DNA of 64,000 nucleotides from the NCBI GenBank assembly GCA_041649715.1, contig JBAZMP010000001.1:309287-373286 (forward strand), read 5' to 3'. The notes below the pieces were generated by a model. That model did no database searches. It worked only from the letters and a program-made list of their open reading frames with translations, and was not told where the DNA came from. Shown here one piece after another: positions 6,599-58,434 of this stretch. Positions within the stretch are counted from its first letter, which is position 1. Each line of letters starts with the position of its first letter. The stretch is from Patescibacteria group bacterium. Its GTDB lineage: Bacteria; Patescibacteriota; Patescibacteriia; JAXHNJ01. Made by a program: the position numbers and the translations under genes.

Positions 6599-6652
6599 AG
6601 TAATTCAAACATAAGCTCATTTTTCCCTCCCCACTGGCGGTTTTTGCCTAAC

Positions 6653-6687
6653 AAAAAAATCCTCAAAAAAGCTGACGAGGATTTTTG
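6653..6687 (+). terminator. Intrinsic terminator
   Basis: AAAAAATCCTC-aaaaaagctgac-GAGGATTTTTG hairpin. Confidence 0.6.
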
Positions 6688-6691
6688 ACTA

Positions 6692-7405: not shown

Positions 7406-7409
7406 AAAT

Positions 7410-7525: not shown

Positions 7526-7695
7526 TGATTCTTTTTCACCAAAAAAACAAACAATCAACCAAGACATTTTTTATCCGCCCGCTAGCCTTAGCGTGTTTTT
7601 TGTATGAAGAAGTTTATCCACCTTGACTTAGAAAGGTATATATATTAGTGTTAAGTTAGTACTAATTCAGTAAATTAGCACAATCTACTAATTTT

Positions 7696-8283
7696 ATGAA
7701 ATGGCTAGATTTTGAGCGAAAAATTAAGAGTAAAAATATTAAGCTGTTCACGCCGCTTGATGTGCAGAGATTTTTAGGCCGGTCTAAAATAGCCGCCCGT
7801 TTTTTGATCCATCGCCTGAAAAAAAATGGCTATATTGTGAGCCTCAAACGCGGTTTGTATAAGCTGTCCGATGAACAAATTCCGGATCTGTATCTGGCCA
7901 ATAATATTTACGCCCCCTCGTATGTTTCCCTGGAATTCGCCCTTTCGTACCACGGAGTCATTCCCGAAACTGTCTATGAGATAACTTCGGTTACCACCAA
8001 GGCCACCCGCCGGTTTGAGGCGCTGGGAAAAGTTTTTTCTTACCACAAAATAAAAAAACCGGCTTTTACCGGCTATGTCATCCAAAAACAGGGCGGGTTG
8101 GGTTTTCACGTCGCCGAACCAGAAAAGGCTTTCGTGGATGCGAATTATTTTCGGCTCTTGGACGGCCGAAAACCGCTGTCCCGCTTCAACAAGGATAAAA
8201 TTGATTTAAAAAAGGCCTTGTTTTATGCCGCTCTTTTCGGCAATCAGAAACTTAACAATATAATTAAAACAACGCTTCAATGA
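7696..8283 (+). CDS. abiEi: Type IV toxin-antitoxin system antitoxin AbiEi (winged-HTH transcriptional regulator)
   Basis: 195 aa. The N-terminus MKWLDFERKIKSK...FTPLDVQRFLGRSKIAARFLIHRLKKNGYIVSLKRGLYKL is typical of AbiEi. The gene overlaps the downstream gene by 4 nt (ATGA). Confidence 0.75.
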   Translation: MKWLDFERKIKSKNIKLFTPLDVQRFLGRSKIAARFLIHRLKKNGYIVSLKRGLYKLSDEQIPDLYLANNIYAPSYVSLEFALSYHGVIPETVYEITSVTTKATRRFEALGKVFSYHKIKKPAFTGYVIQKQGGLGFHVAEPEKAFVDANYFRLLDGRKPLSRFNKDKIDLKKALFYAALFGNQKLNNIIKTTLQ

Positions 8284-9023
8284 TTTCCCAGGAATTAATA
8301 AAAAAAATAGCCAGTCAGAATAAAACAGCGGATTTTCCCAATATTGTCCGCGAGTATTTTCAGCACCTTTTTTTATCCGAGCTCTATAGATTATCCGGCG
8401 CCGAGAATTTGCTTTTTAAGGGCGGGACCGCTTTGCGCATTATCTACGGCAGTCCGCGCTTTTCCGAGGATTTGGATTTTACCCTGATCGGCGTTGAAGG
8501 TTACCGGAAAAAGGAATTCGCGGAAAGCCTGTTTCTCAGCGTTTTGACCGAGATTGAAAAAATCGGCATTAAGGTGGAGATAAACCGGAAGTCGGATGAG
8601 ACCCGCGAGGGTTATTTTGGCGATGCGAACTATCAGGTTTATGATTATCCCGAAACGTCCGTGAGTATAAATATATCCTCAAGAGAGGGAAAAGATATTA
8701 AGGGCGAGATTGATTCCATCGCCAATGATTTCATACCGACTTATAATATTCTGCATCTGTCAAAAAATGTGTTGGTGGAAGAAAAAATAACGGCCGCGAT
8801 CACTCGGGCGAAACCCAGAGATTTTTACGATGTCTATTTTATCCTTAGAAAAAATTTGCTGGCGACAGAAAATAAAAAAATACTCCCTGACATCCTTGAT
8901 AAATTGAATAACACTGATATTAATTTTACCCAGGAATTAGGCATTTTCTTGCCGAAGGATCAGCAGCAAATAGTGAAAGATTTCAAGAATATTTTAACTT
9001 CTGAAATAAAGCGTTATATTTAG
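8280..9023 (+). CDS. abiEii: Type IV toxin-antitoxin system toxin AbiEii (DUF1814 nucleotidyltransferase)
   Basis: 247 aa. It has the nucleotidyltransferase motif LFKGGTALRIIYGSPRFSEDLDFTL (GS...DxD), and its size and operon partner are typical. Confidence 0.75.
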   Translation: MISQELIKKIASQNKTADFPNIVREYFQHLFLSELYRLSGAENLLFKGGTALRIIYGSPRFSEDLDFTLIGVEGYRKKEFAESLFLSVLTEIEKIGIKVEINRKSDETREGYFGDANYQVYDYPETSVSINISSREGKDIKGEIDSIANDFIPTYNILHLSKNVLVEEKITAAITRAKPRDFYDVYFILRKNLLATENKKILPDILDKLNNTDINFTQELGIFLPKDQQQIVKDFKNILTSEIKRYI

Positions 9024-13175: not shown

Positions 13176-14480
13176 TTGAGTAAACAAATGCCGTATATTT
13201 TGTTATCAGACATCAAGCAATATTTAGGCCAAGAGGTGCTTCTTAAAGGCTGGGTTTTTAACGCCCGGTCTTCCGGAAGCCTCTTTTTTTTACAGCTGCG
13301 GGACGGCTTGGGAGAGGTTCAGGGAGTAGTTTCCAAAAAAGAAGTCAGCCCGGAGGTTTTTGACGCCGCAAAGAAGCTTCAGATAGAATCTTCCGTGGAA
13401 GTCACCGGGATTTTGAAAGAAGAGGCTAAATCGCCCTCGGGTTTTGAAATTCAGGTTAAGGATTTGAAAGTCATTCAGATAGCCTCCGATTACCCGATCG
13501 CCAAAAAAGAGCACGGCCCGGATTTTCTGATGGATAACCGGCATTTGTGGCTTCGTTCTTCCCGCCAGCGGGCGATTTTAAAAATAAGGGATTCGGTTAT
13601 TTGGGCCGCCCGCAAATTTTTTAAAGACAATAATTTTACGCTGACGGATTCGCCGATCCTGACGCCGACCGCCTGCGAAGGGACGACCACGCTTTTTAAA
13701 ACCAAATATTTTGAGGAAGACGCTTATCTCGCGCAGTCCGGACAATTATACATTGAAGCGACGGCCGCCGCCCTGGGCCGGGTTTATGATTTCGGGCCTA
13801 CATTCCGGGCGGAAAAATCCAAGACCCGTCGTCACCTGATGGAATTCTGGATGCTGGACGCGGAAGCGGCTTTTGTGGAGCATGAGGAAAACTTAAAGAT
13901 CCAGGAAAATCTGATCAGTTCCATTGTTAAATATGTTTTGGAAAATAATAAAAAAGAGCTGGCAGTTTTGGAAAGAGACATAAAACCTTTGGAAAAAATT
14001 AAGCCGCCTTTTTACCGCAAGAAATATGAAGAGGTTATTAAGGATCTGCAAAGCAAGGGAAGCCCGATAAAATCCGGGGATGATTTCGGCGGAGACGAGG
14101 AAACCCTGATTTCCAAGGATCTGGACAAACCGGTTTTTGTCACGCATTGGCCGAAAAGTATAAAACCTTTTTACATGAAACAGGATCCCCGAAATCCCAA
14201 ATTAGTTTTGAATGCTGATTGCCTCGCCCCGGAAAGTTTTGGCGAGATCATCGGCGGTTCGCAAAGGGAAGATGATTATGAAACTTTGAAAGCCAACATG
14301 GAAAAAGCGAAAATTCCCATCAAGGATTACCAGTGGTATTTGGATTTGCGCCAATACGGCACTTTTCCGCACTCCGGTTTTGGCTTGGGAATTGAAAGAA
14401 CCGTGGCCTGGATCTGCGGATTAAAGCATATCCGCGAGACGATACCGTTTCCAAGAATGCTGAATAGACTTAGGCCATAG
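13176..14480 (+). CDS. asnS: Asparagine--tRNA ligase
   Basis: 434 aa. Class II motif 2 is FRAEKSKTRRHLMEFWMLDAE and motif 3 is GFGLGIERTVAWICGLKHIRETIPFPR. It has an N-terminal OB anticodon-binding domain and the size typical of AsnRS. A TTG start sits 5 nt after AGGAGG. Confidence 0.85.
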   Translation: MSKQMPYILLSDIKQYLGQEVLLKGWVFNARSSGSLFFLQLRDGLGEVQGVVSKKEVSPEVFDAAKKLQIESSVEVTGILKEEAKSPSGFEIQVKDLKVIQIASDYPIAKKEHGPDFLMDNRHLWLRSSRQRAILKIRDSVIWAARKFFKDNNFTLTDSPILTPTACEGTTTLFKTKYFEEDAYLAQSGQLYIEATAAALGRVYDFGPTFRAEKSKTRRHLMEFWMLDAEAAFVEHEENLKIQENLISSIVKYVLENNKKELAVLERDIKPLEKIKPPFYRKKYEEVIKDLQSKGSPIKSGDDFGGDEETLISKDLDKPVFVTHWPKSIKPFYMKQDPRNPKLVLNADCLAPESFGEIIGGSQREDDYETLKANMEKAKIPIKDYQWYLDLRQYGTFPHSGFGLGIERTVAWICGLKHIRETIPFPRMLNRLRP

Positions 14481-14499: not shown

Positions 14500-14672
14500 T
14501 TTAAATCCTAAATTCTAAATCCGAAAATCTAAACAAATCTTAAATTCTAAATTCCAAATTCAAAACCGGTTTGGAACATTGGAAAATTAGGGCTTCGAAT
14601 TTGTTTCGGATTTAGGATTTCGCGCTTCGAATTTATCTGAATTTTGGTGCTTGTAATTTGGAATTTTGAAGA
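14500..14672. repeat. Long AT-rich palindromic hairpin of the AAATYC/GAATTT family (probable bidirectional terminator)
   Basis: AAATCCTAAATTCTAAATCCGAAAATCT...TTTCGGATTTAGGATTT. The two arms are near-perfect reverse complements across more than 60 nt. Confidence 0.65.
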
Positions 14673-18659: not shown

Positions 18660-20039
18660 ATGGACCGCATTTTCACTTCGCAAACCTTAGACAAGGTCGA
18701 TAAAAAAATAAAGCTGGCCGGCTGGGTGCACCGGACGCGCCGGATGGGCTCGATCGTTTTTATTGACCTGCGCGACCGCGAAGGCCTGATCCAGGTGGTT
18801 TTTGACAAGCATTTTAAAGAAGCCCGGGAATTGCGGCCGGAATTTGTCATTGAGTTGGAGGGTAAAGTAGTCAAGCGCGAATTAAAAAATATCAATACGG
18901 ATTCGCCGACCGGCGAAATAGAGGTGCAGGCCACAAGCCTGAAAGTGCTGGCCAAAGCGAAGACTCCGCCTTTTGAAATTGAAAATGAAGAGCGGCAGGC
19001 CAGCGAGGAATTAAGGCTTAAATACCGCTATCTGGATCTGCGGCACGAAAGAATGAAAAAGAACCTGATCTTGCGCCACAAAGTGATCAAATTCATCCGC
19101 GACTGGCTTTCTACCTCCGGTTTTATGGAAATTGAAACGCCGCTTTTGACCAAGGGCACGCCGGAAGGGGCCAGAGAGTACATCGTCCCTTCCCGCAATT
19201 TTGCCGGCCAATTCTATGTCCTGCCGCAAAGCCCCCAGCAGTTCAAGCAATTGCTGATGGTGGCGGGCTTGGAAAAATATTTCCAGATCGCCAGATGCTT
19301 CCGCGATGAAGACGCCAGGGGAGACCGGCAGGCGGAATTTACCCAATTAGACTTGGAAATGTCCTTTGTCTCCCAGGAAGATATATTGAAGCTTTCCGAG
19401 GAATTGTTCATTCAGCTGGTCCAAAAAATCTGTCCGGAGAAAAAGATCGCCAAGATTCCTTTTCCGCGCTTAAGTTATGATGAGTCCATGAAAAAGTATA
19501 AAAGCGACAAGCCGGATCTGCGGAAGAATAAAAAAGACAATAACGAACTGGCTTTTGCCTGGGTTTTGAATCCTCCGCTTTTTGAAAAAAGCGTGACGGA
19601 AAAAAAGTGGGTTTCCACCCACCATCCTTTTACTATGCCGGTCGAGGATGATATTGAATTATTAGATAAAGAGCCAAAAAAAGTTAAAGCGCAATCCTAT
19701 GATATAGTTTTAAATGGTTTTGAAATCGGTACCGGGAGTGTCAGAATCCACGAGGCTTCCTTACAGTACAAAATATTCCAAATTTTGGGTCTGAACGAAA
19801 AAGAGATCCAGGAGCGCTTCGGCCATATGCTGGAGGCTTTTTCCTACGGCGTGCCGCCGCACGCGGGCATCGCCCCGGGTTTAGACAGGTTAGTCATGAT
19901 ATTGGCCGGCGAGCCGAATATCCGGGAAGTGATCGCTTTCCCCAAGACCGCCGATGCCCGAGATTTAATGATGGGAGCACCGTCGGAGTTACCTGAGAGT
20001 CAGGTTAAAGAGGCATATATTAAGAAACTGAAAAATTAA
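18660..20039 (+). CDS. aspS: Aspartate--tRNA ligase (short form lacking the bacterial GAD insertion)
   Basis: 459 aa. Motif 2 is FQIARCFRDEDARGDRQAEFTQLDLEMSF. The GSVRIHE motif is present. Motif 3 is PPHAGIAPGLDRLVMILAGEPNIREVIAFPKT. Confidence 0.85.
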   Translation: MDRIFTSQTLDKVDKKIKLAGWVHRTRRMGSIVFIDLRDREGLIQVVFDKHFKEARELRPEFVIELEGKVVKRELKNINTDSPTGEIEVQATSLKVLAKAKTPPFEIENEERQASEELRLKYRYLDLRHERMKKNLILRHKVIKFIRDWLSTSGFMEIETPLLTKGTPEGAREYIVPSRNFAGQFYVLPQSPQQFKQLLMVAGLEKYFQIARCFRDEDARGDRQAEFTQLDLEMSFVSQEDILKLSEELFIQLVQKICPEKKIAKIPFPRLSYDESMKKYKSDKPDLRKNKKDNNELAFAWVLNPPLFEKSVTEKKWVSTHHPFTMPVEDDIELLDKEPKKVKAQSYDIVLNGFEIGTGSVRIHEASLQYKIFQILGLNEKEIQERFGHMLEAFSYGVPPHAGIAPGLDRLVMILAGEPNIREVIAFPKTADARDLMMGAPSELPESQVKEAYIKKLKN

Positions 20040-20067: not shown

Positions 20068-20195
20068 ATAAATTTCAAATTACAAATCTCAAGTTCCAAA
20101 TAAATTCCAATGACCAAAATTTCAAACTTTTTAAACTATCTGGTGTTTTGGTCATTTGATCATTGAAAGTTGGTGCTTGGAATTTGGAATTTGTT
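20068..20195. repeat. Long palindromic hairpin of the AAATYC family after aspS
   Basis: ATTCCAATGACCAAAATTTCAAAC...GTGTTTTGGTCATTTGA...TTGGAATTTGGAATTT. The arms are reverse complements. Confidence 0.6.
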
Positions 20196-29399: not shown

Positions 29400-30527
29400 A
29401 TGAAAATAGCGATTGTCACGCAAAGTTATTATCCGATCAAGGGAGGGGTGGCGGAGCATGTCCATGCTCTTTCCGGAGAGCTGGAAAAATTAGGGCATAA
29501 AGTCGTCATCATCACCGCCAATTTTACCGGTTTGGACGATAATTATGGACGTTGTGTCTATCGGATCGGCCGCGACTTGACGATTCCGATAAACGGCGCC
29601 TTCAACAACATGACGGTCGGTTTTTCCTTAAAAAAACAGTTGGAGGAAATTGAAAGCAAGGAAAAATTTGATCTTATCCATATCCATCAGCCGATTGACC
29701 CGATCCTGCCTTTAATGGCTTTGAAATATTTAAAAGCCCCCAAAGTCGGCACTTTCCATACCTACAGCGAGGGAAGCTATATTTTGGAGACTTTAAAGAA
29801 TCAGGCCAAGCCTTTTTTTGATCGTCTTTCCGGCTTGATCGCGGTCTCGTCTTCCGCGCGGGAATACATCACCCGGTATCTGCCCGGTGATTACCGGATA
29901 ATCCCCAACGGCGTGGACACCACCCGGTTTTCTCCCGAAGTGGAGCCCTTGGAAGGATATAAAAATAGCCGCGATTTCAAGATATTATTTGTGGGCAGAA
30001 TGGACCCCCGCAAGGGTTTTAAGTATTTGTTGAGGGCTTTCCCTCTGATCTATCAAAAGATCACCAATGTCCGCCTGATCGTGGTGGGCAATGGATTTTT
30101 GCGGACGTTTTACCATTTATCCCTGCCTTCCGTTCTGCGGCCCAGAGTGGATTACCGGGGTTTTGTTTCAAGGGCCGATCTGCCCCGGTATTATGCCTCC
30201 TGTGATGTTTACTGTTCGCCGGCCACCATGGGCGAAAGTTTCGGCATCGTTCTTTTGGAAGCGATGGCCTCGGGCAAGCCGGTCATCGCCTCGGATATCC
30301 GGGGTTATAATTCCATTCTGGAAGACGGCCGCCAGGGATATTTAGTGCCCAAAGAAAATCCCCTGGCTTTGGCGGAAAAAATCATTGATTTGGCCTGTGA
30401 CCAGAAAAAAAGAGAAATGATGGGGGCGGCTGGCCGGCAAAAAGCCCTGACCTTTGATTGGGGGAGGGTGGCGAAAGAGATTGAGGGACTATACCGGGAA
30501 GTTCTGGGGAAAAAGGGAAAGTCATAA
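29400..30527 (+). CDS. Family 4 glycosyltransferase (GT4)
   Basis: 375 aa. The N-terminus MKIAIVTQSYYPIKGGVAEHV..L.KLGH.V is typical, as is the C-terminal E(x7)E motif region ESFGIVLLEAMASGKPVIASD. Confidence 0.8.
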   Translation: MKIAIVTQSYYPIKGGVAEHVHALSGELEKLGHKVVIITANFTGLDDNYGRCVYRIGRDLTIPINGAFNNMTVGFSLKKQLEEIESKEKFDLIHIHQPIDPILPLMALKYLKAPKVGTFHTYSEGSYILETLKNQAKPFFDRLSGLIAVSSSAREYITRYLPGDYRIIPNGVDTTRFSPEVEPLEGYKNSRDFKILFVGRMDPRKGFKYLLRAFPLIYQKITNVRLIVVGNGFLRTFYHLSLPSVLRPRVDYRGFVSRADLPRYYASCDVYCSPATMGESFGIVLLEAMASGKPVIASDIRGYNSILEDGRQGYLVPKENPLALAEKIIDLACDQKKREMMGAAGRQKALTFDWGRVAKEIEGLYREVLGKKGKS

Positions 30528-30531
30528 AATT

Positions 30532-32424
30532 ATGGAGGAAGGGGTAAAAAATATAAAGAGAGCAAAAGGGGCTTTTCGTTTTTTTATCTTGGCCGGCCTA
30601 GTGATTGTTTTGCCGCTTTTTGTTTTTATTTTTATCAATCAGCCGCTAAAACCCACCCTGGTCGTGATCAAGGAGGAAAGCAGGTTGAAAGTTGATTCAC
30701 CGCTGGAGATCCAGTTTGACTGGCCGGTCGCCCGCCAAGTAAATATCACCATTGAACCGGCGGTAACGGGCGAGGTGGCTTATAAGAATATGATCATCGG
30801 CCAGCATTTTTCGCGGACCGTGGTTTTTACCCCGGAGCTTAACTTTTGGCCGGACACCACCTACCAAGTGAGGGTTTCAAATGTGAAATCCGTTTTGCCG
30901 AGCTTGTTGCCGGCCCGGGAATATGTCTATACTTTTACCACGGAAAGTGTGCCGAAAATCAAATCCCTGACCCCGGAAGTTGTTGGGGAAATAAGGGCAG
31001 ACCAAGAATTCAAAATAACCCTGGATAAAAAACCGGCCAACCTGGCAGAATACGAATATCGTTTTTTGCCGGCTGTTGATTATGACACTCTGTTAAGCGA
31101 AGAGGGAAAAACCGTCACTTTAAAGCCTAAAAGCTTGCTTTCCCAGGGCCAGACTTATCAGTTATCTGTTTGGCAGAAAAAAATCCGGAATTTTTATCAG
31201 AAAAATGAGGCGGGTTTCCGGGCCGAGCCGGAAAGTATTTGGACCGGCAATTTTGCCGTCCGGGAGGCTCCCTTTCTTTCGGGCTTTTCCCCGAAAGGAG
31301 AAAATGTCGGCTTAAACGCCGAGATCACCGCGGTTTTTAACGAGCCGGTGGAAACTGCTTCTTTCAAAGAGAGCCTTTCCATCACGCCGGCTTTATCAGG
31401 CGATTGGCGGACCGAAGATCAAAAAACCTTTGTTTTGAAAGAAGCGACACTCGCCAAAGACACCGACTATAAAGTTTTGATCCGCCGGGGCTTAAAGACT
31501 CTCAAGGGCGGATATTTCACCGAAGACGCCACGCATACTTTTAAAACGATCGGCCCGGTGGAAATCGCTCGTTTTTCTCCGGCTGATGGCGCCGCCGGCG
31601 TTTCCGTCAGTCATTCTTTTTCCGTCACTTTTAACCAGGCAGTGGATAAAACATCGGCCCAAAGTCATTTTTCCCTTGAGCCGGCGGCTGCCGGAGATTT
31701 TTTGTGGTCAGGGGAGACATTGACTTTTAAGCCAAAGGCTTCCTTAGCTTTTAATACGACCTATCATCTCACGATATCCAAGGGAGTGAAAAGCTTGTCG
31801 GGTTTTGATTCGGAAGAAGACTATAAAACAAACTTTACCACCGAGCTTTCCCTGACGAAATTGGCCGTTCCCTTCCACCGGCAGGAGCATAATTTAAGCT
31901 GCGAGACCGCCACCCTGGTCATGGCCTTGGCCTACCGAGGGGTGAGCGTTTCGGAGGCCGCGATTATAGATTATATCGGCTTTGACCCCACGCCGAAATC
32001 AGGGGGCGTCTGGGGTAATCCTAACGTCGCTTTTGTCGGCGACATTGACGGCCACCAGCCTTCGACCGGCTACGGAGTCTATTGGGATCCGATCACCAGA
32101 GCCGCCGATCAATACCGGAGCGCTTATGATTTTACCGGCTGGAATATCTCCGATTTGACCGCGGAGATCAAGAAAGGCAATCCGGTGATCGTCTGGGGCA
32201 CGGCCGGTTCCGGAGCCAGGATTGACTGGAAGACGCCCGCCGGCGGCAACGTGGTGGCCGTCAGCGGCGAGCACACCCGGGTGGTTGTCGGTTTTATCGG
32301 TTCGGCCGAAAATCCGAGCAAAATCATTACTTTAGACCCGCTTTCCGGGGAAAAGTATTTTACCTTGAGCAGTTTTCTTTGGAACTGGGGGCTTTTGGGC
32401 CGAAGCGGCGTGGTGGTCGAATAG
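30532..32424 (+). CDS. Membrane-anchored multidomain protein with a C-terminal YvpB/C39-like cysteine peptidase domain
   Basis: 630 aa. An N-terminal TM helix is followed by repeated beta-sandwich-like segments. The C-terminal domain LAVPFHRQEHNLSCETATLVMALAYRGVSVSE ... GEHTRVVVGF matches the Peptidase_C39_2 (YvpB) pattern VP...Q....CE..S..M. Confidence 0.6.
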   Translation: MEEGVKNIKRAKGAFRFFILAGLVIVLPLFVFIFINQPLKPTLVVIKEESRLKVDSPLEIQFDWPVARQVNITIEPAVTGEVAYKNMIIGQHFSRTVVFTPELNFWPDTTYQVRVSNVKSVLPSLLPAREYVYTFTTESVPKIKSLTPEVVGEIRADQEFKITLDKKPANLAEYEYRFLPAVDYDTLLSEEGKTVTLKPKSLLSQGQTYQLSVWQKKIRNFYQKNEAGFRAEPESIWTGNFAVREAPFLSGFSPKGENVGLNAEITAVFNEPVETASFKESLSITPALSGDWRTEDQKTFVLKEATLAKDTDYKVLIRRGLKTLKGGYFTEDATHTFKTIGPVEIARFSPADGAAGVSVSHSFSVTFNQAVDKTSAQSHFSLEPAAAGDFLWSGETLTFKPKASLAFNTTYHLTISKGVKSLSGFDSEEDYKTNFTTELSLTKLAVPFHRQEHNLSCETATLVMALAYRGVSVSEAAIIDYIGFDPTPKSGGVWGNPNVAFVGDIDGHQPSTGYGVYWDPITRAADQYRSAYDFTGWNISDLTAEIKKGNPVIVWGTAGSGARIDWKTPAGGNVVAVSGEHTRVVVGFIGSAENPSKIITLDPLSGEKYFTLSSFLWNWGLLGRSGVVVE

Positions 32425-32446: not shown

Positions 32447-33421
32447 GTGATTAAATATAAACTGATGTCCCATTGTGTTCTCATTTTCGAAAAAGAAACC
32501 ATCCGGGAAGCAGGCTTGGAGGATATCCACAAGGATGATCTGATCTGGGCGGATTTTCAAGATCCGACGGAAAAGGATTTAAAATTTGTTGCCGAACTGA
32601 TCGGGACCGGCATCCCGGAGATAAAAGAATGGTTTAAGCCCTCGCAAAGGCCGACTCTGTTCCAGCAGGATGATTACTCGGCCATTTTTTTAGGTTTCCC
32701 CGTGGCTAGCAATAAATCTATCCACGCTCATCCTTTGTTAATATTTGTTTCTAAAGACCGGAACGATATCATAACCCTGCATCGCGGCCCGTGCCTGGCT
32801 CTTGAAAAAGTCCATTCCTACAATGAATTGCGTAATTTGCGGGTTTTTAAGGGCGGTATTACTAACGTGCTTTTAGCCATCCTGGAAGAAGTGGTGGACA
32901 GTTTTTTTGATAACGTGGAAAAGATCAGCGACGATTTGGAAAATATTGAAGGCCATATGTTTGACTATAAAAACAGCCGGAACGTGATGAACCTAACTTT
33001 TACAGTAAAAAAAAGCCTGATCTATCTGAACCGGGCCCTGATCGCTGACCGCGAGGTCGTCATGGGGATAGAAAGGCAGTATGTAAAATTTTTCGACGAG
33101 GAACGACTAGGGGATTTCCGCGATCTATCCCTGAAGATCGTCCAGCTGATCGAAATGATGACCACCTACCGGGATATCATCACTTCGACCATTGAGATTC
33201 ATCTCTCGGCCATTTCCAATAACCTGAACGTGACCATGAAGAAAGTCACCTCCTGGGGCGCTCTAATCTTGGTGCCCAGTCTGATCGCCGGTATTTTTGG
33301 CATGAATTTCGAATACATCCCCATTTTGCATGAAAGAACTGGTTTCTATATATCCATAATATTAATGGTGTCATCGGTATATGTTCTGGCGCGGTATTTT
33401 CAAAAGAAAGACTGGCTGTAA
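32447..33421 (+). CDS. corA: Magnesium/cobalt transporter CorA
   Basis: 324 aa. The C-terminus has two TM helices with the GMN signature (IFGMNFEYIP) and the typical cytoplasmic domain. Confidence 0.8.
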   Translation: MIKYKLMSHCVLIFEKETIREAGLEDIHKDDLIWADFQDPTEKDLKFVAELIGTGIPEIKEWFKPSQRPTLFQQDDYSAIFLGFPVASNKSIHAHPLLIFVSKDRNDIITLHRGPCLALEKVHSYNELRNLRVFKGGITNVLLAILEEVVDSFFDNVEKISDDLENIEGHMFDYKNSRNVMNLTFTVKKSLIYLNRALIADREVVMGIERQYVKFFDEERLGDFRDLSLKIVQLIEMMTTYRDIITSTIEIHLSAISNNLNVTMKKVTSWGALILVPSLIAGIFGMNFEYIPILHERTGFYISIILMVSSVYVLARYFQKKDWL

Positions 33422-33426: not shown

Positions 33427-34230
33427 ATGAAGAAGAAAATAATAATATTGTTATTAATCCTAACACTCGCCTGTCTTTTTTATTTCGGCCGGCACCAGAT
33501 CGCGGAATTATGGGAGAATTTCGTGGCCGAACCCCTGCCAGAACCGACTCCTCTGGAAAATATCAATACAAGGATAAATCAAAATACTAACGCAGCGGTC
33601 AATCAGAATCAAAATATTAACTTGTCGGTGAATAATAACCTTAACGCCGCGCCGCCCGTTTTACCGTCTGAATTCAATCTAGTCGTGCCTTTTACCACTC
33701 AGTCGCCGTTTGCGGAATGGACCGAGCAGGATAACGAATCCTGCGAAGAAGCGGCGATTTTGACCGTCCATTATTACTGGCAAAAAAAGACTTTTACCAA
33801 ACAAATTGCCAAAGAGGAGCTGCAAAAGATTGTGGATTATGAAATGGCGCATCTGGGTTTTTACAAAGATACGGATGCGGAAGAAACGGCCCAGTTGGCC
33901 AAGGATATGTGGGGCTACAAGCGCGTGGACGTGGTTTGGGATCCGACGCTTGAGGATATAAAACAGCAGGTCTATGCCGGCCGACCGGTGATCTTGCCGA
34001 CCGCGGGAAGAGAGTTAAAAAACCCGAATTTCAAAACGCCGGGGCCCATATACCACATGGTGGTGGTGCGCGGCTGGACCAAGGGTATGATCATTACCAA
34101 TGATCCGGGCACGCGCAAAGGTGAAAATTACCAATATTCCCCTGATATTTTAATGAATGCGGTGCATGACTGGAACGACGGGGATATAATGAATGGAAAA
34201 AAGGCGATGATTGTGATTTATCCGAATTAA
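33427..34230 (+). CDS. Signal-anchored YvpB/C39-like peptidase-domain protein
   Basis: 267 aa. A TM anchor and Asn-rich linker are followed by LVVPFTTQSPFAEWTEQDNESCEEAAILTVHYYWQ ... YHMVVVRGW, which matches the Cys and His regions. Confidence 0.55.
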   Translation: MKKKIIILLLILTLACLFYFGRHQIAELWENFVAEPLPEPTPLENINTRINQNTNAAVNQNQNINLSVNNNLNAAPPVLPSEFNLVVPFTTQSPFAEWTEQDNESCEEAAILTVHYYWQKKTFTKQIAKEELQKIVDYEMAHLGFYKDTDAEETAQLAKDMWGYKRVDVVWDPTLEDIKQQVYAGRPVILPTAGRELKNPNFKTPGPIYHMVVVRGWTKGMIITNDPGTRKGENYQYSPDILMNAVHDWNDGDIMNGKKAMIVIYPN

Positions 34231-34248
34231 TCTTTAATATCCTCAATT

Positions 34249-34701
34249 ATGCCGGAGAAAGAAAGAGATTTCTTAGTCCGTAAGCCGATTAGAGTGAGTA
34301 TCATTATGAATGTTGATGTAAGTGATTGGGCCCTTAAAGACAAGCTGCCCGAAGGCTATATATGCGGTGGTGGCGTATTTAGTTTTCCCGCCGGGTATCG
34401 GGAATCCTACATTGTCAATGGAAAAGAATATAATTGTGAGGGTAATTTGAGCTTAGAGGAGCAAAGGGCTGATATTACACATGACCTGACGGAAGGAGGC
34501 TTTTCTCTTCAGGAAGCGGAAGAGTATATGGTCAATCTTAAGACCGTAGAATGGTCAGTCAGCTATTTGAATTACGATGCTTCGCAAAAGTGGCTGGAAC
34601 TACATCCGGAATTTGAAGATGAAGCCATGAAAATCTTAAAAGAAGCTATCAATGAGCTTAAAGCGGAAGGAAATGAACAAGGGAGACGGGTCAGAAGGTG
34701 A
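34249..34701 (+). CDS. Hypothetical acidic protein
   Basis: 150-aa ORF with no motif recognised. It is flanked by an imperfect direct repeat of about 26 bp. Confidence 0.45.
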   Translation: MPEKERDFLVRKPIRVSIIMNVDVSDWALKDKLPEGYICGGGVFSFPAGYRESYIVNGKEYNCEGNLSLEEQRADITHDLTEGGFSLQEAEEYMVNLKTVEWSVSYLNYDASQKWLELHPEFEDEAMKILKEAINELKAEGNEQGRRVRR

Positions 34702-34724
34702 TGCTTGTGATTTATCCGAACGAT

Positions 34725-34862
34725 TGAAATAAATTCCAATATCCAAATTCAAAACACGCCCCAGAGGCGTTTTTTTGTATTAAAAAAATGGATCGTTAGA
34801 GTTTTGGATTTCGAATTTGGAATTTGGGTATTGTTTGGAACTTGGAATTTGTGATTTGGTAT
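34725..34862. repeat. AAATYC-family palindromic hairpin with a nested canonical terminator (ACGCCCCAGAGGCGTTTTTTT)
   Basis: ATTCCAATATCCAAATTCAAAAC ... GTTTTGGATTTCGAATTTGGAATTTGG. The inner GC hairpin plus T-tract lies at 34752..34776. Confidence 0.6.
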
Positions 34863-35002
34863 TTAGCGGCTAAATAGCGGCACAGTCAAGAATAGGGGAT
34901 AACCTTCCCTTTAAAATTTGACTCTCAAAAAGGGCGATGATATAATGTGGATAAGTATGTAATTGCATACTTTTCATACTTAATAAAATCAAGCAAAAAA
35001 CC

Positions 35003-35356
35003 ATGAAAAAAATCGCTTTAATCGCCACAATGGCTATCGCTTGCGTCTTGCCTCTTGCCGTTTTGGCCCAAACGCCGCTTTCTATTGAGAATGTCGGCAG
35101 TACCCTGGGTCTTGGCACGGCTGATCTCAAGGCCAGCGTTTTAAACATCCTCCAGTGGGTCCTGGGTCTGCTTGGCTTAATCGCGGTGATTATGATCATT
35201 ATCGGCGGCATAACACTGCTGGTGCCGACGAGCGCCGAAGCGGGAGAGAAAGCGAAAAAGATAATTACGGGGGCGGTCATCGGTTTGGTCGTTATCTTGC
35301 TCGCCTGGGCCATTATTATCTTTGTCATCAACACGACCACTAACGTGACGGTTTAA
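35003..35356 (+). CDS. Small secreted 2-TM protein: a candidate TrbC/VirB2-like pilin, or a hydrophobic bacteriocin-like peptide
   Basis: 117 aa. Signal peptide MKKIALIATMAIACVLPLAVLAQT, then two long hydrophobic helices separated by the basic loop PTSAEAGEKAKKIITG. The overlapping minus-strand ORF was rejected. Confidence 0.45.
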   Translation: MKKIALIATMAIACVLPLAVLAQTPLSIENVGSTLGLGTADLKASVLNILQWVLGLLGLIAVIMIIIGGITLLVPTSAEAGEKAKKIITGAVIGLVVILLAWAIIIFVINTTTNVTV

Positions 35357-35372
35357 AAATTAATATAAATAT

Positions 35373-35627
35373 ATGGTATCGACTAAGCAGCCGGAAATCT
35401 TCGGCACCGTGACCGTCGGAGAGCGCGGCCAGATCGTCATCCCCGCCCATCTGCGCGAGAAACTGCGCCTGAAAAAAGGCGACCAGCTGATGGTTTTCTG
35501 CCATTTAAACCAGATAATCGGTCTGGTCCGCTCAAATGAGATGTACGAATTTTTGAACCGGATCACCAACCGGATGGTCAAACAGGTGGATAAATTTAAA
35601 GAAGCCATTAAAAAACAGGGATTATAA
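35373..35627 (+). CDS. AbrB/MazE/SpoVT-family DNA-binding protein
   Basis: 84 aa. VTVGERGQIVIPAHLREKLRLKKGDQLMV is the swapped-hairpin AbrB-type motif. Confidence 0.7.
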   Translation: MVSTKQPEIFGTVTVGERGQIVIPAHLREKLRLKKGDQLMVFCHLNQIIGLVRSNEMYEFLNRITNRMVKQVDKFKEAIKKQGL

Positions 35628-35630
35628 CGA

Positions 35631-36440
35631 ATGGAAAATATCATCGAAGTCAAGAATCTAACCAAAAAATTCAAGGATCTGACCGCCGTGGATAGCATCT
35701 CTTTTAACGTCAAAAAGGGGGAGGTCTTCGGTTTTTTAGGGCCGAATGGGGCCGGTAAATCCACGACCATCCGGATGCTGACCACCTTGATGCGGCCGAC
35801 TTCCGGCCAGGCGACCGTGGCCGGACACGACGTTTCCAGCCAGCCGGATCTGGTGCGCGAGCACATCGGTTTAGTGGCGGAAAAAATCATCCTCTATGAT
35901 CGGCTGACGGCAATGGAAAATCTGATGTTTTTCGGTAACCTTTATCATTTACCAAAAAATGTCATTAAAGAAAGAGCGGCTAAGTGGCTGAAAGCCCTGG
36001 ATATGGATAAATGGGAAAAAAAGCAGACCGGTACTTTTTCCACGGGCATGAAGCAAAGAGTGAATATCGTCCGGGCCCTTTTGACCGAGCCGGAAGTGAT
36101 GTTTCTGGATGAGCCGACTTTGGGCCTGGATCCGCAGACGTCCCGCTCCATCCGGGATTTTATTAAAGATTTGCATGCCCACGGGGTGACGGTTATTTTG
36201 ACCACCCATATTATGCCCGAAGCGGACGAACTTTCCGATACCATTGCGATTATTGACCGCGGCCGGATTATCGCCTTAGACACTCCTTCTGACCTAAAAG
36301 CTCGCTGTAATAAGCCGAATGCTACCCTGGAAGACGTTTTTCTTTCTTTGACCGGCCGGGTCATGCGCGAGGAAACCCATAATAATATACCTTCGGCCCG
36401 AGGCCGCCATTTCATGGGTGGCCGGTCCCGGATCAGATAA
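35631..36440 (+). CDS. ABC transporter ATP-binding protein
   Basis: 269 aa. Walker A GPNGAGKST, signature FSTGMKQR, Walker B VMFLDEPTLGLD and a His-loop TTH. Confidence 0.85.
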   Translation: MENIIEVKNLTKKFKDLTAVDSISFNVKKGEVFGFLGPNGAGKSTTIRMLTTLMRPTSGQATVAGHDVSSQPDLVREHIGLVAEKIILYDRLTAMENLMFFGNLYHLPKNVIKERAAKWLKALDMDKWEKKQTGTFSTGMKQRVNIVRALLTEPEVMFLDEPTLGLDPQTSRSIRDFIKDLHAHGVTVILTTHIMPEADELSDTIAIIDRGRIIALDTPSDLKARCNKPNATLEDVFLSLTGRVMREETHNNIPSARGRHFMGGRSRIR

Positions 36441-36458
36441 TTAACTCCTTATATTAAT

Positions 36459-37670
36459 ATGAAAAAGTTCGGACAAATTTTCATTGACAGCTTCCGGATG
36501 GCCCGCAAAGACCTGCTGGATTTTTCCCGCGACCGGATGCAGCTGGTTTTTTTCATGATCATGCCCGTTTTTATGATGATCATGACGGGTTTTATTTTTC
36601 CCTCGCAAAGCTCTTTGAAGGATATCTCTCTGGGCCTGGCCAATCAGGACAAGGGACAGATGGGGGTAATCCTGACCAAAGTGCTGACCGAGATGAAGAC
36701 TTCAAGCGGCGCCGCGATCTTTAAGATTAAGACATATGCCGATGTGGACGGCCTGAAGCAGGGGATCCGGGCCCAAGCCATAAATGGCGGCGTCTTTATC
36801 GGTTCTGATTTTTCAAGTCTCGTCCAGAACAATCAGCAAGCCACGGTTTCCCTCGTTCCGGATCAATCAAATCCACAAATTTCCCAGATTCTCACCCAGA
36901 TCTTGGAGCGGGTTATTGCCGGTACGGGGAATAGCGTCGCCCAGGCCAAGGTGGGCGAAATGTTAAAACTGACCGCCACCGCCAATCCGAGCCTGTCGCA
37001 GGTTGACCCGGAAGCCATCATTAGTCCGATCCAAACCACTTTGGATAATTTGATTCCCGGCGAGACGAATTATTTTCAGTTTATCGCCCCGGGGATAATG
37101 GCCTTGATCGTGATGATGTCGGTGATGGCGGGCTTAGCCGCTTCCGTGTCCCGGGAACGGGAATCTGGCACTCTGGACGGTTTGCTCATCGCGCCGGTTT
37201 CGCGGCTTTCCATAATCTTGGGCAAATCACTTTCTCAAACCGTCCGCGGCATGGTCCAGGGTCTGGTGGTTCTGTTTTTGGCCATTCTTATCTTTGGCGT
37301 GCACGTCTACGGCAACTGGCTGATCATGATTTTACTGATGTTCCTTGGGGTGTTTGCTTTCATGGGTGTTGGCATCCTTGTTTCCGCGATGGCCACCGCC
37401 CAGGAAACGGCCATGACCATCATGATGACCCTGCAGTTTCCCATGATGTTCTTATCCGGCACTTTTTTCCCGATTCAGCAGATGCCTCACTTCATGCAAT
37501 ATATTTCGAAAGTGATACCGCTAACTTATGAATCTACGGCCCTGCGCAAGGTCATTGTCCTAAGCGCGGGATTTAGCGCCGTCTGGACCGAGATAGTAAT
37601 ACTTTTTGTTTTCGGGGCGGTGATGCTGGCGATTGCCGTGCCGATGTTTCGGAGGATGGTGACAAGGTAA
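36459..37670 (+). CDS. ABC-2 type transporter permease
   Basis: 403 aa. An N-terminal TM helix and large extracytoplasmic loop are followed by 5 C-terminal TM helices, the typical ABC-2 architecture. It lies downstream of the ATPase. Confidence 0.75.
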   Translation: MKKFGQIFIDSFRMARKDLLDFSRDRMQLVFFMIMPVFMMIMTGFIFPSQSSLKDISLGLANQDKGQMGVILTKVLTEMKTSSGAAIFKIKTYADVDGLKQGIRAQAINGGVFIGSDFSSLVQNNQQATVSLVPDQSNPQISQILTQILERVIAGTGNSVAQAKVGEMLKLTATANPSLSQVDPEAIISPIQTTLDNLIPGETNYFQFIAPGIMALIVMMSVMAGLAASVSRERESGTLDGLLIAPVSRLSIILGKSLSQTVRGMVQGLVVLFLAILIFGVHVYGNWLIMILLMFLGVFAFMGVGILVSAMATAQETAMTIMMTLQFPMMFLSGTFFPIQQMPHFMQYISKVIPLTYESTALRKVIVLSAGFSAVWTEIVILFVFGAVMLAIAVPMFRRMVTR

Positions 37671-37671
37671 A

Positions 37672-37845
37672 CAAACTAAATTCTAAATCCGAAATCCTAA
37701 ATTCTAAACAAATCATAATATCTAAATCACAAATTCGAAACCCCATTAGAAATTCTATTTTTAAATAGGAAACCGGTTTGGGACATTGGAAAATTATTGC
37801 TTCGAATTTGTTTAGGATTTAGAAATTGAGATTTGGAATTTTATC
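37672..37845. repeat. AAATYC-family long palindromic hairpin
   Basis: AAATTCTAAATCCGAAATCCTAAATTCTAAACAAATC ... GATTTGTTTAGGATTTAGAAATT. The arms are complementary. Confidence 0.65.
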
Positions 37846-37928
37846 CTTGATATTAATTAGAAAAAAGGGGGAGATAATGGAATTTTGCTCTTTTTTTTGG
37901 TATACTTAAAAGGAAAGGAATAAAAATT

Positions 37929-40199
37929 ATGGATAATGAATCAATTAAGCCCAAGCCTCCGGTTAAAAAGGCCAATTTTACCATTTGGATCGTTTTGGGA
38001 GCGATCATAGTCATTGTTTTAGCTTTTGGCGGTTATTATCTGTACAGCCAAAGAGCCGGCAACAAAAATACCAATACAGTCAGCCAAACGAATATCAATG
38101 CCAATATCAACGAGAGCGAGAATCTGAATAATAATCTGAACTTGAATGTCAATCAGGCGGTTAACGGCAATACCAATACCTCGGTGGCCAAAACCGGCTG
38201 GCAGCTTATTACCTATCAGCGGGCGGACCACGGTTTCACTTTCCAGCTACCGGAAAATTGGACGACCTGGGGCGGCTGGAACGGCTTTCGCGAAACAGAC
38301 CCTTTGGCTGGCGCTCATTTGGCGGATAATGACAAATATCTGGACTTGACTCTCAATTATTTTGTAAATACCGAGCCGTCTTTTGAAACCTGGCTGGCGA
38401 AACGCAAAGAAGCCATAAGCAAGGACGAAACGATTATCAATGAACAGATAAAAACGATTAACGGCTCTGAGGCGGCCGTAATAGACACCCAATACGATTA
38501 TGTCATTAGCGGAGGCGGAATATATTTAAAAGTCTACGCTTTCGTACCGCGCGGCGATAAGATTTATAAACTTGAAGCAAGTGGGAAAAAGGATTTTTTT
38601 GAAAGCCAAAGCCAAGGTGTTGACGGAATAATTGAGTCTTTTAAATTTATCGACGTAAAACCAATCGCAGAGATCAATACAATTTCTTACGGGCAGAAGA
38701 TATCCTCAAACCTTGCCTATAACCTTGAAGTTGATTGGCTGGCCGAACCCTTGAGTATCAATATGAAAGAACCTTCCCTGTTAAAATCCGATAGCGGCGT
38801 TATGAACCGGGATTACTATCAAGTCGGAACGATCACTAACGGCCGCTATAAAGACAAGAAGCTGCTCGATATTTTTGAAACACCGGATGGGCCGGCTTTT
38901 TATCCTGACTTGTATCGGGTGGTATACGACGAGGAGAGTCGGACATTCACGTATCTGGAAAAACTTTCGGCCACCCTTTCCGATTACGTCAAGGAGAATT
39001 TTGCTTACGACACGGGTTCCACAATCAGCTCTTTGTCTGGAATGCCCGCCGAAATTTCCATTCCTGATTCACAGATAAAACTGGCGGCCGAAGCTTATTC
39101 TTTAAACGGACGCTTTTCCTCCTATGAAAATTTAGAGCTATTATTTACGGATACGACAGCGGGAAAAGTATATTTTGACTCGGTGAAAAAATGTTTTCTG
39201 ATCGAGACACCAGACAGTTTGGTCAAGCTCTATTATCTTAAACTGGACTTTGTCAGCAATTTCACGCCGCCGGAATATTCTTCATCCACGATTTCTCTCA
39301 TCCCAGCGGTTACTTGGACGGATGGCAGCAAAGTGACGAAAGAATACACGTACAGTGAGCCCACCGGCTGTGGGTCAAGCTATTGTCAGTCATTGTTTAC
39401 CGCCGAAGAACTCGGCGGGGCTGACGTGCTCCAAGTCGCCGGCAAGACATCGGCCGGAGATAACGTCTATGAATATAAGGATAAAAACGCCCAATTGCTG
39501 CAGGATACCTACAAAGAATACGGAGTGCCATATCAGGGCGAAAAGGTCGGTTACGAGCAATTTATAAGCGGTCACCCGGTTTTTTACTGGCCGGACCCGT
39601 TTGGCCGATATTTGCGGTTTAAGAAGTCTGAATTTTTGCCCATGGTTGAGTGTGCAAAACCCGTGATCTATCTTTATCCGGAAAAAACGGAAAAAATAAG
39701 GGTGGAAGTGGCGCCGAACGGCGGTTTCTCTGAAACGATCCCGACCTATCCAGATGACGGTTGGCTGGTAACGGCTTCTCCGGCCGGCGAGCTATTAGCC
39801 GAAGATGGCGGAATATACCCATATCTTTTCTGGGAAGGTTTTGGCTTCAACTACAAAATTCCGGACAGAGGTTTTATCGTGGCTAAAAAAGATGTCGGTG
39901 TTTTCCTCTCGGAAAAATTAATAGCCTTGGGCTTGAATGAAAAAGAGGTCGGCGAGTTCAAGGATTTCTGGCTGCCCAAGATGTCAGAAAAACCCTATTA
40001 TTTTATCACTTTCGTCGATCAGAATGTCTTTAACGAACTTGCGCCCTTGAAAGTGACGCCGCAACCCGACCGGATCATCCGGGTTTTTATGGATTATAAA
40101 CCATTGGACGCCCCGATAAGCGTGGAGCCTCTGGAGATTTCGACGCCGGAAAGATCCGGTTTCACCGTGGTGGAGTGGGGCGGTGCCCTGCACCGATAA
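37929..40199 (+). CDS. Large membrane-anchored extracytoplasmic protein of unknown function
   Basis: 756 aa. A TM anchor ending in GGYYLY is followed by an NTNTVSQTNINANINESENLNNNLNLNVN linker and no recognisable catalytic motif. Confidence 0.6.
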   Translation: MDNESIKPKPPVKKANFTIWIVLGAIIVIVLAFGGYYLYSQRAGNKNTNTVSQTNINANINESENLNNNLNLNVNQAVNGNTNTSVAKTGWQLITYQRADHGFTFQLPENWTTWGGWNGFRETDPLAGAHLADNDKYLDLTLNYFVNTEPSFETWLAKRKEAISKDETIINEQIKTINGSEAAVIDTQYDYVISGGGIYLKVYAFVPRGDKIYKLEASGKKDFFESQSQGVDGIIESFKFIDVKPIAEINTISYGQKISSNLAYNLEVDWLAEPLSINMKEPSLLKSDSGVMNRDYYQVGTITNGRYKDKKLLDIFETPDGPAFYPDLYRVVYDEESRTFTYLEKLSATLSDYVKENFAYDTGSTISSLSGMPAEISIPDSQIKLAAEAYSLNGRFSSYENLELLFTDTTAGKVYFDSVKKCFLIETPDSLVKLYYLKLDFVSNFTPPEYSSSTISLIPAVTWTDGSKVTKEYTYSEPTGCGSSYCQSLFTAEELGGADVLQVAGKTSAGDNVYEYKDKNAQLLQDTYKEYGVPYQGEKVGYEQFISGHPVFYWPDPFGRYLRFKKSEFLPMVECAKPVIYLYPEKTEKIRVEVAPNGGFSETIPTYPDDGWLVTASPAGELLAEDGGIYPYLFWEGFGFNYKIPDRGFIVAKKDVGVFLSEKLIALGLNEKEVGEFKDFWLPKMSEKPYYFITFVDQNVFNELAPLKVTPQPDRIIRVFMDYKPLDAPISVEPLEISTPERSGFTVVEWGGALHR

Positions 40200-57507: not shown

Positions 57508-58434
57508 TTATAAAAACTTTTTTTTCTTGAAAAATTGCCAGCTGACCAAGGTGGCGAACAAGAGAACAACGAGAATAATCCAAAAGCCCCAGCGGAAATG
57601 GAGGAAGGGGGTGTCTTTAGCGTTAATGGCAAAAATGGAGGCGATCAAGGTGAGAATGAAAATAATCACCGAGATGCTGGTAAAGGTTTTCATGATGTCG
57701 TTCAAACGGTTTGAGATCAATGATTCATTCGTTTCGTGCAGCGCCTCGATTGATTCCTTGAAGCTTTCCAGATGATCCCAGATTTCCTTACTTAGTTCAA
57801 TCAGATCGTTATAATAAATCGACATTTTTTGGTTTCTGGAGAAGCCCGTGTCTTTTATGATTATACTGAGCTTTTTCAGGGTATTTTTATGAGCCTGCAT
57901 AATTTGACGGAAATCGGTGATATTGCGCCGAATGATTAGAATTTCAGAGACCATCTTTTTTTCCGAGCCGCTGAAAATCTCCCTTTCGATGCTCCTGATG
58001 TCGAGACTGACATGATCGAGCATCGGATAGCAGTAACAGAGGAGTTTGTCCAGGATCTGGTAAAGCAGGAAGACGGAGCCTTCGGACAATATTTCGTATT
58101 TGACTTTTTCCTCGGTCTGGCAGGATTGAAAAAGCCCTCTTAGGGGCGCTAAATTATTATTGTGGACAGTGACAAAATAATCTTCTCCGATAAAGAAATC
58201 TATTTCCGAGGGCTCGATTTCGCGCGTTTTTCGGTTATAAACCGGGAATAAGAGAACCAGAAAAATATATTTTGGATACTTTTCGATTTTTGGCCTTTGG
58301 CCGTAAATCAAACAATCCTCTAGATCAAGAGGATGGAAAGGGAAGTTATTCCTTAGGAAATCAATCTCGCCTTTTTCCGGATTGACAATATTAATCCAGC
58401 GTAAATTTTTCGTCCTAATTTCCGCTAAACTCAT
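57508..58434 (-). CDS. CorA-family divalent cation transporter-like protein with a non-canonical AIN in place of GMN
   Basis: 308 aa. The N-terminus is CorA-like (FPFHPLDLEDCLIYGQRPKIEKYPKYIFLVL). Two C-terminal TM helices carry FAINAKDTPF where YGMNF is expected. Confidence 0.55.
   Translation of the reverse strand: MSLAEIRTKNLRWINIVNPEKGEIDFLRNNFPFHPLDLEDCLIYGQRPKIEKYPKYIFLVLLFPVYNRKTREIEPSEIDFFIGEDYFVTVHNNNLAPLRGLFQSCQTEEKVKYEILSEGSVFLLYQILDKLLCYCYPMLDHVSLDIRSIEREIFSGSEKKMVSEILIIRRNITDFRQIMQAHKNTLKKLSIIIKDTGFSRNQKMSIYYNDLIELSKEIWDHLESFKESIEALHETNESLISNRLNDIMKTFTSISVIIFILTLIASIFAINAKDTPFLHFRWGFWIILVVLLFATLVSWQFFKKKKFL

Follow-up and report, generated by a model that had tools for sequence, protein, structure and literature searches.

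The 64,000-nucleotide (nt) stretch analysed here, referred to as the window, is part of contig JBAZMP010000001.1 of a Patescibacteria group bacterium. Four open reading frames (ORFs) on its + strand are packed into positions 35003-37670 and form the unit under study. They encode, in order, a small protein of a VirB2-like pilin family, an AbrB-type protein, the ATPase of an ATP-binding cassette (ABC) transporter and an ABC-2 permease, and the gaps between them measure 16, 3 and 18 nt. No terminator is found in the 16-nt gap between the pilin gene and abrB, and a promoter-like sequence followed by an operator-like site precedes the pilin gene. The four genes are grouped at the level of transcription because they have a common promoter and operator-like site and tiny intergenic gaps, and they probably make up a single operon in the order promoter, operator, pilin, abrB, ATPase, permease. 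An earlier reading of the sequence (the original prediction) had treated the four genes as one module. This grouping stands for transcription; the AbrB-exporter pair is an efflux cassette that other phyla have without any pilin.

The pilin and the exporter

The product of the first gene, 117 amino acids (aa) long and annotated as hypothetical protein WC528_01770 (100% identity), matches the Pfam family PF18895 (T4SS_pilin) with 43.5 bits against a gathering threshold of 26.6, over profile positions 10-68 of 71. The NCBIfam model 'Mbov_0395 pilin-like conjugal transfer protein' gives 32.6 bits, below its cut-off of 40. A large protein collection holds 387 homologues, and PF18895 is present in all 120 of those listed. 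Some of the listed homologues also have PF04956 (TrbC) among their precomputed matches, several are labelled 'pilin' or 'VirB2 component' by NCBI and JGI, and the named ones are nearly all from Patescibacteria. The suggestion that this is a pilin-like subunit is supported by these matches. The PF04956 search that had been proposed as a check returned no match for the window protein at E <= 0.01. Judged by its profile match, the protein is a member of the known pilin family PF18895 and not a bacteriocin.

The signal peptide, the two hydrophobic helices and the Lys-rich loop that had been noticed in this protein are all present. Its N-terminus reads MKKIALIATMAIACVLPLAVLA, followed by QTP after the predicted cleavage point, and comprises a KK n-region, a hydrophobic core and a V-L-A cleavage motif. 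The signal peptide was placed at residues 1-22 from the sequence and from an alignment of 31 homologues, across which the cleavage column is A-x-A-like. Long hydrophobic helices lie at about residues 45-73 and 88-112, with the loop PTSAEAGEKAKK between them. An AlphaFold2 model built with the 31 homologues (mean predicted local distance difference test score 76.6) has helices at residues 2-22, 28-35, 39-73 and 78-116, so that the predicted structure is a signal helix followed by a helical hairpin. Features conserved across the family include a GLGTADLK motif in the mature N-terminus, the two transmembrane helices, the basic loop, a Trp-Ala pair in helix 2 and N-V-T at the C-terminus. A lipoprotein anchored through Cys14 was considered and rejected, as this Cys is not conserved in the family alignment. 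A profile search of the sequences of solved structures in the PDB with the pilin alignment gave a best E of 0.73, a chance match to an unrelated protein, and a Foldseek search of the PDB with the model retrieved generic helical hairpins only (best E = 1.7). Such null results are expected for a two-helix hairpin and are uninformative either way.

Pilins of this family have been surveyed with the same Pfam model, and VirB2-like pilins were reported in 1,948 Patescibacteria assemblies, in 1,135 of which the pilin adjoins virB4 (PMC12102498, Microb Genom 2025). Many Patescibacteria pilins lie away from virB4, 441 arrays of 2-11 highly divergent pilin genes were described, and an essential pilin array of Southlakia epibionticum is cited in the same study (PMC12102498). 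The window pilin resembles these proteins in its Sec signal peptide, two-helix hairpin, basic loop and length of about 117 aa, and in belonging to a genome with multiple divergent, fast-evolving paralogues. It differs from them in being a solo gene outside an array, away from virB4 and first in an efflux operon. Its loop carries a one-residue deletion and has lost the conserved Trp of the family, an alteration common only to AbrB-adjacent orthologues. Compared with Agrobacterium VirB2, RP4 TrbC and F TraA, the modelled topology of a short helix and a two-helix hairpin is the same, whereas the leader is an ordinary short signal peptide where theirs is long, signs of cyclisation or acetylation are absent, and no cognate VirB machinery is found nearby.

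Two side observations concern the pilin family more widely. The N-V-T end (window 35339-35353) resembles an N-x-T sequon and falls on the predicted outside face, and in 36 loci the main pilin arrays have DUF2079 proteins and other membrane proteins of GT-C-like or GT87 type as neighbours, which hints at possible glycosylation of the pilin or the envelope. Giant ORFs of about 2,700-3,350 aa in related genomes begin with a complete pilin module (signal peptide, GLGTADL motif, two transmembrane helices and ..KVT) that is connected by a Gly/Ser linker to the remainder of the protein. They occur at L054 9890-19963, L060 5182-13491 and L062 9944-19996, and also in L063, L064, L068, L073 and L077, and from their sequences they look like pilin-anchored giant surface proteins.

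The AbrB-type protein, ABC ATPase and ABC-2 permease that were expected after the small protein are confirmed by their domain matches. The ATPase matches PF00005 with 117 bits and the DrrA model TIGR01188 with 311.5 bits, just under the cut-off of 312.45. The permease matches PF12698 with 164 bits, and the general ABC-2 families PF12698 and PF01061 are both clearly recognised in it; against the drrB model it scores 109.9 bits (cut-off 223). The pair is like the DrrAB-type exporters of daunorubicin resistance (TIGR01188/TIGR01247) in its DrrA-model score, in its ABC-2 permease and in having the two components encoded by adjacent separate genes. It is unlike them in that the permease falls well short of the DrrB cut-off and carries a long N-terminal loop, as ABC2_membrane_3 permeases do; a hydrophilic stretch of ~150 residues follows its first transmembrane helix and is presumably extracytoplasmic. 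Neither the pilin nor the exporter is unusual when considered singly: both belong to known families, the pilin family has been published together with its arrays, and ABC-2 exporters are ubiquitous.

The AbrB subfamily and the TCATAC motif

The SpoVT/AbrB fold binds DNA, and repressor operators commonly overlap the transcription start. The 84-aa AbrB protein of the window matches TIGR01439 with 46.7 bits (cut-off 28.3) and PF04014 with 34.7 bits (cut-off 24.7), and it has only about 40 residues besides its DNA-binding domain. Close orthologues (75-90% identity) are confined to a narrow clade, and beyond it identity falls to about 50% or less, in Omnitrophota, Armatimonadota and metagenome bins. 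For eight distant homologues the contigs were looked up, and in all eight abrB is the first gene of a pump operon, often with a 4-14 nt overlap with the next gene. Four of these operons are of the AbrB-OEP-MFP-MacB type, two are AbrB-OEP-ABC-ABC2 and two are AbrB-OEP-MFP-RND. A metagenome scan with the AbrB alignment yielded 80 more loci at 33-53% identity (one truncated match reached 73%), and pump parts account for 31 of the 53 first downstream genes that could be called: 14 OEP, 12 ABC ATPases (9 with a DrrA C-terminal domain), 4 HlyD-type adaptors and 1 ABC_membrane. The subfamily is not exclusive to efflux, and it usually leads efflux or detoxification operons in several phyla.

The pumps encoded behind abrB genes of this subfamily are of ABC-2, type-IV ABC, MacB and RND architecture. 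Linkage to four unrelated architectures argues that the AbrB protein is a regulator rather than a pump subunit, and it is predicted from sequence to be an autoregulator that binds a TCATAC operator. In domain, small size and repeated short DNA motifs near the promoter it is like other looped-hinge helix factors of the AbrB/SpoVT type (AbrB, Abh, SpoVT, MazE, MraZ), and like mraZ in the dcw operon its gene is the first of the operon that it presumably controls. The window subfamily is distinguished from these factors by its invariant core GTVTVGERGQIVIP, by its placement in efflux and detoxification operons across phyla and by the 9-nt phase of its TCATAC motif. Control of efflux is usually attributed to regulators of the TetR, MarR or MerR type or to two-component systems. 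With the local efflux repressors of the TetR/AcrR, MarR and BmrR types the subfamily would share a small regulator gene beside pump genes and an operator overlapping the pump promoter. The fold is nevertheless unrelated, being a swapped-hairpin AbrB domain rather than a helix-turn-helix, and no ligand-binding domain is obvious. No description of an AbrB-type efflux regulator subfamily was found in the searchable literature, which covers few subscription journals, and the AbrB/operator subfamily appears to be undescribed. If pumps are regulated by an AbrB-fold protein whose binding site can be predicted, this could be tested directly and would aid the annotation of pumps in uncultured phyla.

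In an unbiased 6-mer count over the 120 nt upstream of abrB in 70 non-redundant loci, TCATAC/GTATGA was the top enriched hexamer (81 sites in 56/70 loci, 17-fold over locus background, p = 9e-69), and the -35 hexamer TTGACA was enriched only 7-fold in the same count. Of 121 control intergenic upstream regions taken from the same loci, 10 contain this hexamer (odds ratio 44, p = 1.4e-24). Most CATA[CT] cores are located between -60 and -20 relative to the abrB start. Where neighbouring sites share an orientation, their spacing is 9 nt in 50 pairs and 18 nt in 8; for sites in opposite orientation it is 7 or 11 nt. Inspection by eye of the distant AbrB operons finds the same core between a -10-like box and abrB, for example as TCATACAtttCATACA, as CATACAAAA repeated 3-4 times, or as TGTATGA-ttat-TCATACA. 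Motif variants also occur, such as CATGAT in L093 where other loci have CATAC. Just one cluster in the whole window brings three CATAC/GTATG cores together within 40 nt. These cores are at 34955, 34966 and 34975; the first two, in opposite orientation, are spaced by 11 nt and the last two, in the same orientation, by 9 nt. They lie at -48 to -24 from the pilin ATG, directly after the -10 box. No such cluster is found directly before abrB, which begins 16 nt after the pilin stop codon. The operator-like site is nearly invariant in the two relatives L002 and L088.

The pilin linkage and its interpretation

The generality of the gene order was examined in 80 pilin loci from species-representative genomes other than the window, whose ORFs were searched with the window neighbours as queries. 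L002, the closest relative, is the only one to share the pilin-AbrB-ABC arrangement, in the order GT, Big_5/C39, CorA, C39, pilin, AbrB, ABC, ABC-2, HrcA; no AbrB or ABC gene lies beside the pilin in the other 79. The usual context of the pilin is a tandem array, flanked in 31-36 loci by the same genes as the array that the window's own genome carries on another contig. This three-gene array (L001 9174-10357) is accompanied by an NTP-transferase, a solute-binding protein, a PG_binding protein, DUF2079 and GT-C-like membrane proteins (L001 10465-12492 and 12539-18594), and no further pilin copy is found among all window ORFs of at least 40 aa. Recurrent neighbours across the 80 loci are DUF2079, GT-C-like membrane proteins, NTP-transferase, solute-binding protein and housekeeping genes. 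The pilin-ABC linkage is not a trait of the pilin family and is restricted to one clade.

Within that clade, L088 has the same gene order as the window. In L089/L090 the AbrB protein is 88% identical and is retained together with the pilin C-terminus; it is followed, just before hrcA, by two ABC_membrane+ABC_tran half-transporters in place of the ABC-2 pair. The order pilin, AbrB, exporter is kept in each narrow-clade member seen, namely L002, L088, L089/L090 and the apparent pairs P0003/P0122, P0005/P0128 and P0010/P0127, deduced from short contigs of matching length. The AbrB-adjacent pilins (the window gene, L002, L088, the L089 fragment and, by deduced adjacency, P0003, P0005 and P0010) have in common the loop GGV.L..PT-S.E...EKAKK with its one-residue deletion, where array copies have GGFQWMTAGGNEEK. 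Loop sequence, compared irrespective of gene context, also places P0009 and P0012 with this type. These pilins appear, on sequence comparison, to be a distinct and fast-evolving orthologue group. Nucleotide identity between the window and L002/L088 is 81-86% in the leader (113 nt upstream of the pilin), 84-85% in abrB, 81-84% in the ATPase and 74-78% in the permease, and it is 63% in the pilin gene (56-58% for the protein). Residues 1-66 of the window pilin are 79% identical to the array copy P0002, from another contig of the same genome, and 48-56% identical to most AbrB-adjacent copies (71% to P0003); residues 67-117 have the opposite trend. This pattern suggests gene conversion between paralogues in the 5' half of the gene (35003-35200).

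The search for type IV secretion system (T4SS) genes proposed in the original prediction succeeded in part. A VirD4/TrwB-like coupling protein of 859 aa is encoded at 60118-62697 (+), 25 kb from the pilin (PF10412 49 bits, PF02534 41 bits), between a 180-aa ORF with no assigned function and a methyltransferase gene, and no other T4SS genes were found near it. A Pfam scan of window ORFs found no VirB4, VirB6 or VirB3/TrsD. In the 80 related loci, Walker-A ORFs lying up to 10 kb from a pilin were sampled through representatives, which include no VirB4-type family, and VirD4-like proteins occur in 2 loci only. In L040, an orthologue of the 60118-62697 gene is followed by a pilin gene after 620 nt. 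Homologues of the coupling protein are nearly universal in Patescibacteria and usually lie far from virB4 (PMC12102498).

The arrangement is best explained by a lineage-specific capture, in which, within one narrow clade, an AbrB-regulated efflux operon has acquired a fast-evolving pilin paralogue as its first gene, a reading to which we assign a probability of about 0.7. It builds on direct observations, namely the family memberships, the gene order, the operon signals, the enrichment and spacing of the motif and the restricted range of the pilin linkage. The ancestral cassette would have consisted of operator, abrB and pump, as it exists without pilins in other phyla. In the narrow clade, a paralogue of the genome's VirB2-like pilin array would have been placed between operator and abrB, a position in which it would be co-transcribed and co-regulated with the pump. 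AbrB would bind the TCATAC repeats and repress its own operon until some signal relieves the repression, and the DrrAB-like ABC-2 pump would export a hydrophobic or toxic compound. If it behaves like other proteins of the VirB2 family, the pilin would be exported by Sec, cleaved after Ala22 and held in the membrane as a two-helix hairpin with its KAKK loop in the cytoplasm, and could serve as a variable subunit or surface-exposed membrane protein of a chromosomal T4SS-like system encoded elsewhere. The locus would then illustrate clearly how a pilin paralogue can be drawn into a foreign regulatory circuit: an episymbiont's surface protein would have come under a stress or efflux regulator, and it evolves much faster than the remainder of the operon.

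Several points weigh against the capture model. The promoter was called solely by its match to the consensus, and the promoters of Patescibacteria are uncharacterised. The remaining 22 of the 53 first downstream genes called in the metagenome loci are not pump parts and include methyltransferases, FMN reductases, DUF998 and Rce1-like proteins. No VirB4 or VirB6 was found in the window or within 10 kb of the pilins in the 80 related loci, and the 'pilin' role of the subfamily is therefore one assigned by homology. The retention of pilin and AbrB despite the pump swap in L089 could indicate a functional tie of the pilin to the cassette. The 9-nt phase of the motif is shorter than a DNA helical turn, and the repeats lie in the probable 5' untranslated region, where they could act at the RNA level. 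An RNA element in that region, bound by a protein or folded as a hairpin, would take the place of a DNA operator; the CATAC repeats are downstream of the -10 box and probably transcribed, AAGUAUG-N6-CAUACUU can pair as a 7-bp hairpin, and the phase is unusual for a DNA-binding protein. This explanation is unlikely, however: many loci have direct repeats only and can form no hairpin (L082, L084, L093), the protein has a DNA-binding fold, and Rfam gave no match. It is likewise quite unlikely that pilin and exporter are partners in a dedicated pilin-biogenesis module, with the pump extracting or exporting the pilin or flipping a lipid for its assembly. Such a module would fit four genes co-transcribed from one promoter and operator, a gene order retained throughout the clade and a clade-specific cytoplasmic loop, and ABC systems such as LolCDE and LptB2FG are known to extract hydrophobic cargo from membranes. 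Against it stand the 79 of 80 pilin loci with neither neighbour, the same AbrB-pump cassette and operator found pilin-free in other phyla, and the L089 pump, a structurally unrelated type-IV ABC heterodimer beside which the pilin stays, which is hard to fit to a pilin-specific machine. That the pilin is no passenger at all, and that an altered-loop VirB2-like subunit is wired to an AbrB-controlled exporter in one Patescibacteria clade with a stress signal inducing both, is improbable. If true, it would imply a T4SS-independent, ABC-driven route for pilin extraction or display, and chemical or envelope stress would induce a surface filament or anchor together with the pump handling it.

The original prediction also offered a bacteriocin or immunity module, in which a 117-aa two-helix antimicrobial peptide would be processed by C39-like peptidases, with the ABC genes serving export or self-immunity. 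The protein is indeed small, hydrophobic, secreted and encoded beside an ABC-2 exporter, C39-like domains occur upstream, and the ATPase has some likeness to lantibiotic-protection ATPases (TIGR03740, 191 bits against a cut-off of 310). The module is nonetheless largely refuted and retains very little probability. A clear PF18895 member has here a Sec signal peptide and not a double-glycine leader, and its family occurs as arrays and as N-terminal anchors of the giant proteins. The C39_2 proteins have no ABC fusion and are set apart from the pilin by CorA and an ORF, the ABC proteins have no peptidase domain, and no modification or immunity genes are present; the rarity of the AbrB/ABC linkage and the different exporter type in a close relative also speak against it. 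The notion that AbrB is the MazE-type antitoxin of a toxin-antitoxin pair is refuted by context. It could draw on the PF04014 (MazE_antitoxin) match and on weak matches to PrlF and MazE NCBIfam models, but no score comes near the equivalog cut-offs for antitoxins. A toxin gene (MazF, Doc, PIN, YhaV) does not adjoin abrB here or in homologue loci with precomputed Pfam gene tables, and AbrB is therefore not taken for an antitoxin; the next gene encodes the ABC ATPase here and a pump component in each of the eight looked-up loci.

Boundaries and surroundings of the unit

The coordinates of the unit, its control sequences and its boundaries are summarized in Table 1. The next gene downstream starts at 37929, and an Rfam scan of 34000-38500 found no credible family. 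The two C39-like proteins that had been placed just upstream are present and are not immediate neighbours of the pilin, as a CorA gene and a 150-aa ORF are placed between. Both C39_2 proteins stand alone, and one has Big_5 domains. The neighbourhood in the window is chromosomal and of housekeeping type, with genes for glycolysis, aminoacyl-tRNA synthetases and hrcA-grpE-dnaK-dnaJ.

Table 1. Features of the pilin-AbrB-exporter unit and its flanks (window coordinates).
Feature	Position	Strand	Basis or remark
Peptidase_C39_2 (PF13529) protein	30454-32424		Upstream of unit; Pfam scan
Peptidase_C39_2 (PF13529) protein	33427-34230		Upstream of unit; Pfam scan
AT-rich palindromic intergenic element	34730-34851		Encloses hairpin; after the 150-aa ORF ending at 34701
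Terminator-like G+C hairpin, then T run	34756-34770	+	Within centre of palindromic element; upstream boundary
Sigma-70-like promoter TTGACT-17-TATAAT, extended -10 TG	34918-34946	+	11/12 matches; region kept in L002 and L088
Operator-like site AAGTATG-N6-CATACTT-TT-CATACTT	34953-34981	+	-50 to -22 from pilin ATG
VirB2-like pilin paralogue, 117 aa, PF18895 T4SS_pilin	35003-35356	+	Profile match, alignment, AlphaFold2 model
AbrB/SpoVT-domain protein, 84 aa, core GTVTVGERGQIVIP	35373-35627	+	TIGR01439, PF04014
DrrA-like ABC transporter ATPase, 269 aa	35631-36440	+	PF00005, TIGR01188
ABC-2 permease, 403 aa, ABC2_membrane_3 type	36459-37670	+	PF12698
AT-rich palindromic element, same repeat family as 34730-34851	37690-37839 (about 37680-37842 as full repeat element)	+	Downstream boundary; folding z-score -3.1

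The AT-rich palindromes, which are placed where transcription units end, consist of 7-nt TTTGGAA/AATTTGG-like repeats in inverted arrays. Further elements of this type lie at 14548-14667 and 20076-20193, and the four have folding z-scores between -1.6 and -3.8. They may function as bidirectional terminators or belong to a small family of repeat elements.

Genes for CorA-type magnesium transporters occur twice in the window, at 32447-33421 (+), between the two C39-like peptidase genes, and at 57508-58434 (-). Two paralogous class-II (Asp/Asn/Lys-type) aminoacyl-tRNA synthetase genes (13176-14480 and 18660-20039) are 4 kb apart, and several ORFs with no Pfam match lie between them. Positions 1-9023 form a low-GC island (27-29% against about 46%) with genes for a Bro-N protein, a 790-aa N6-methylase/Eco57I-like protein and three ORFs with no Pfam match, followed by an AbiEii toxin gene at 8280-9023. 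This region is probably a mobile or defence island.

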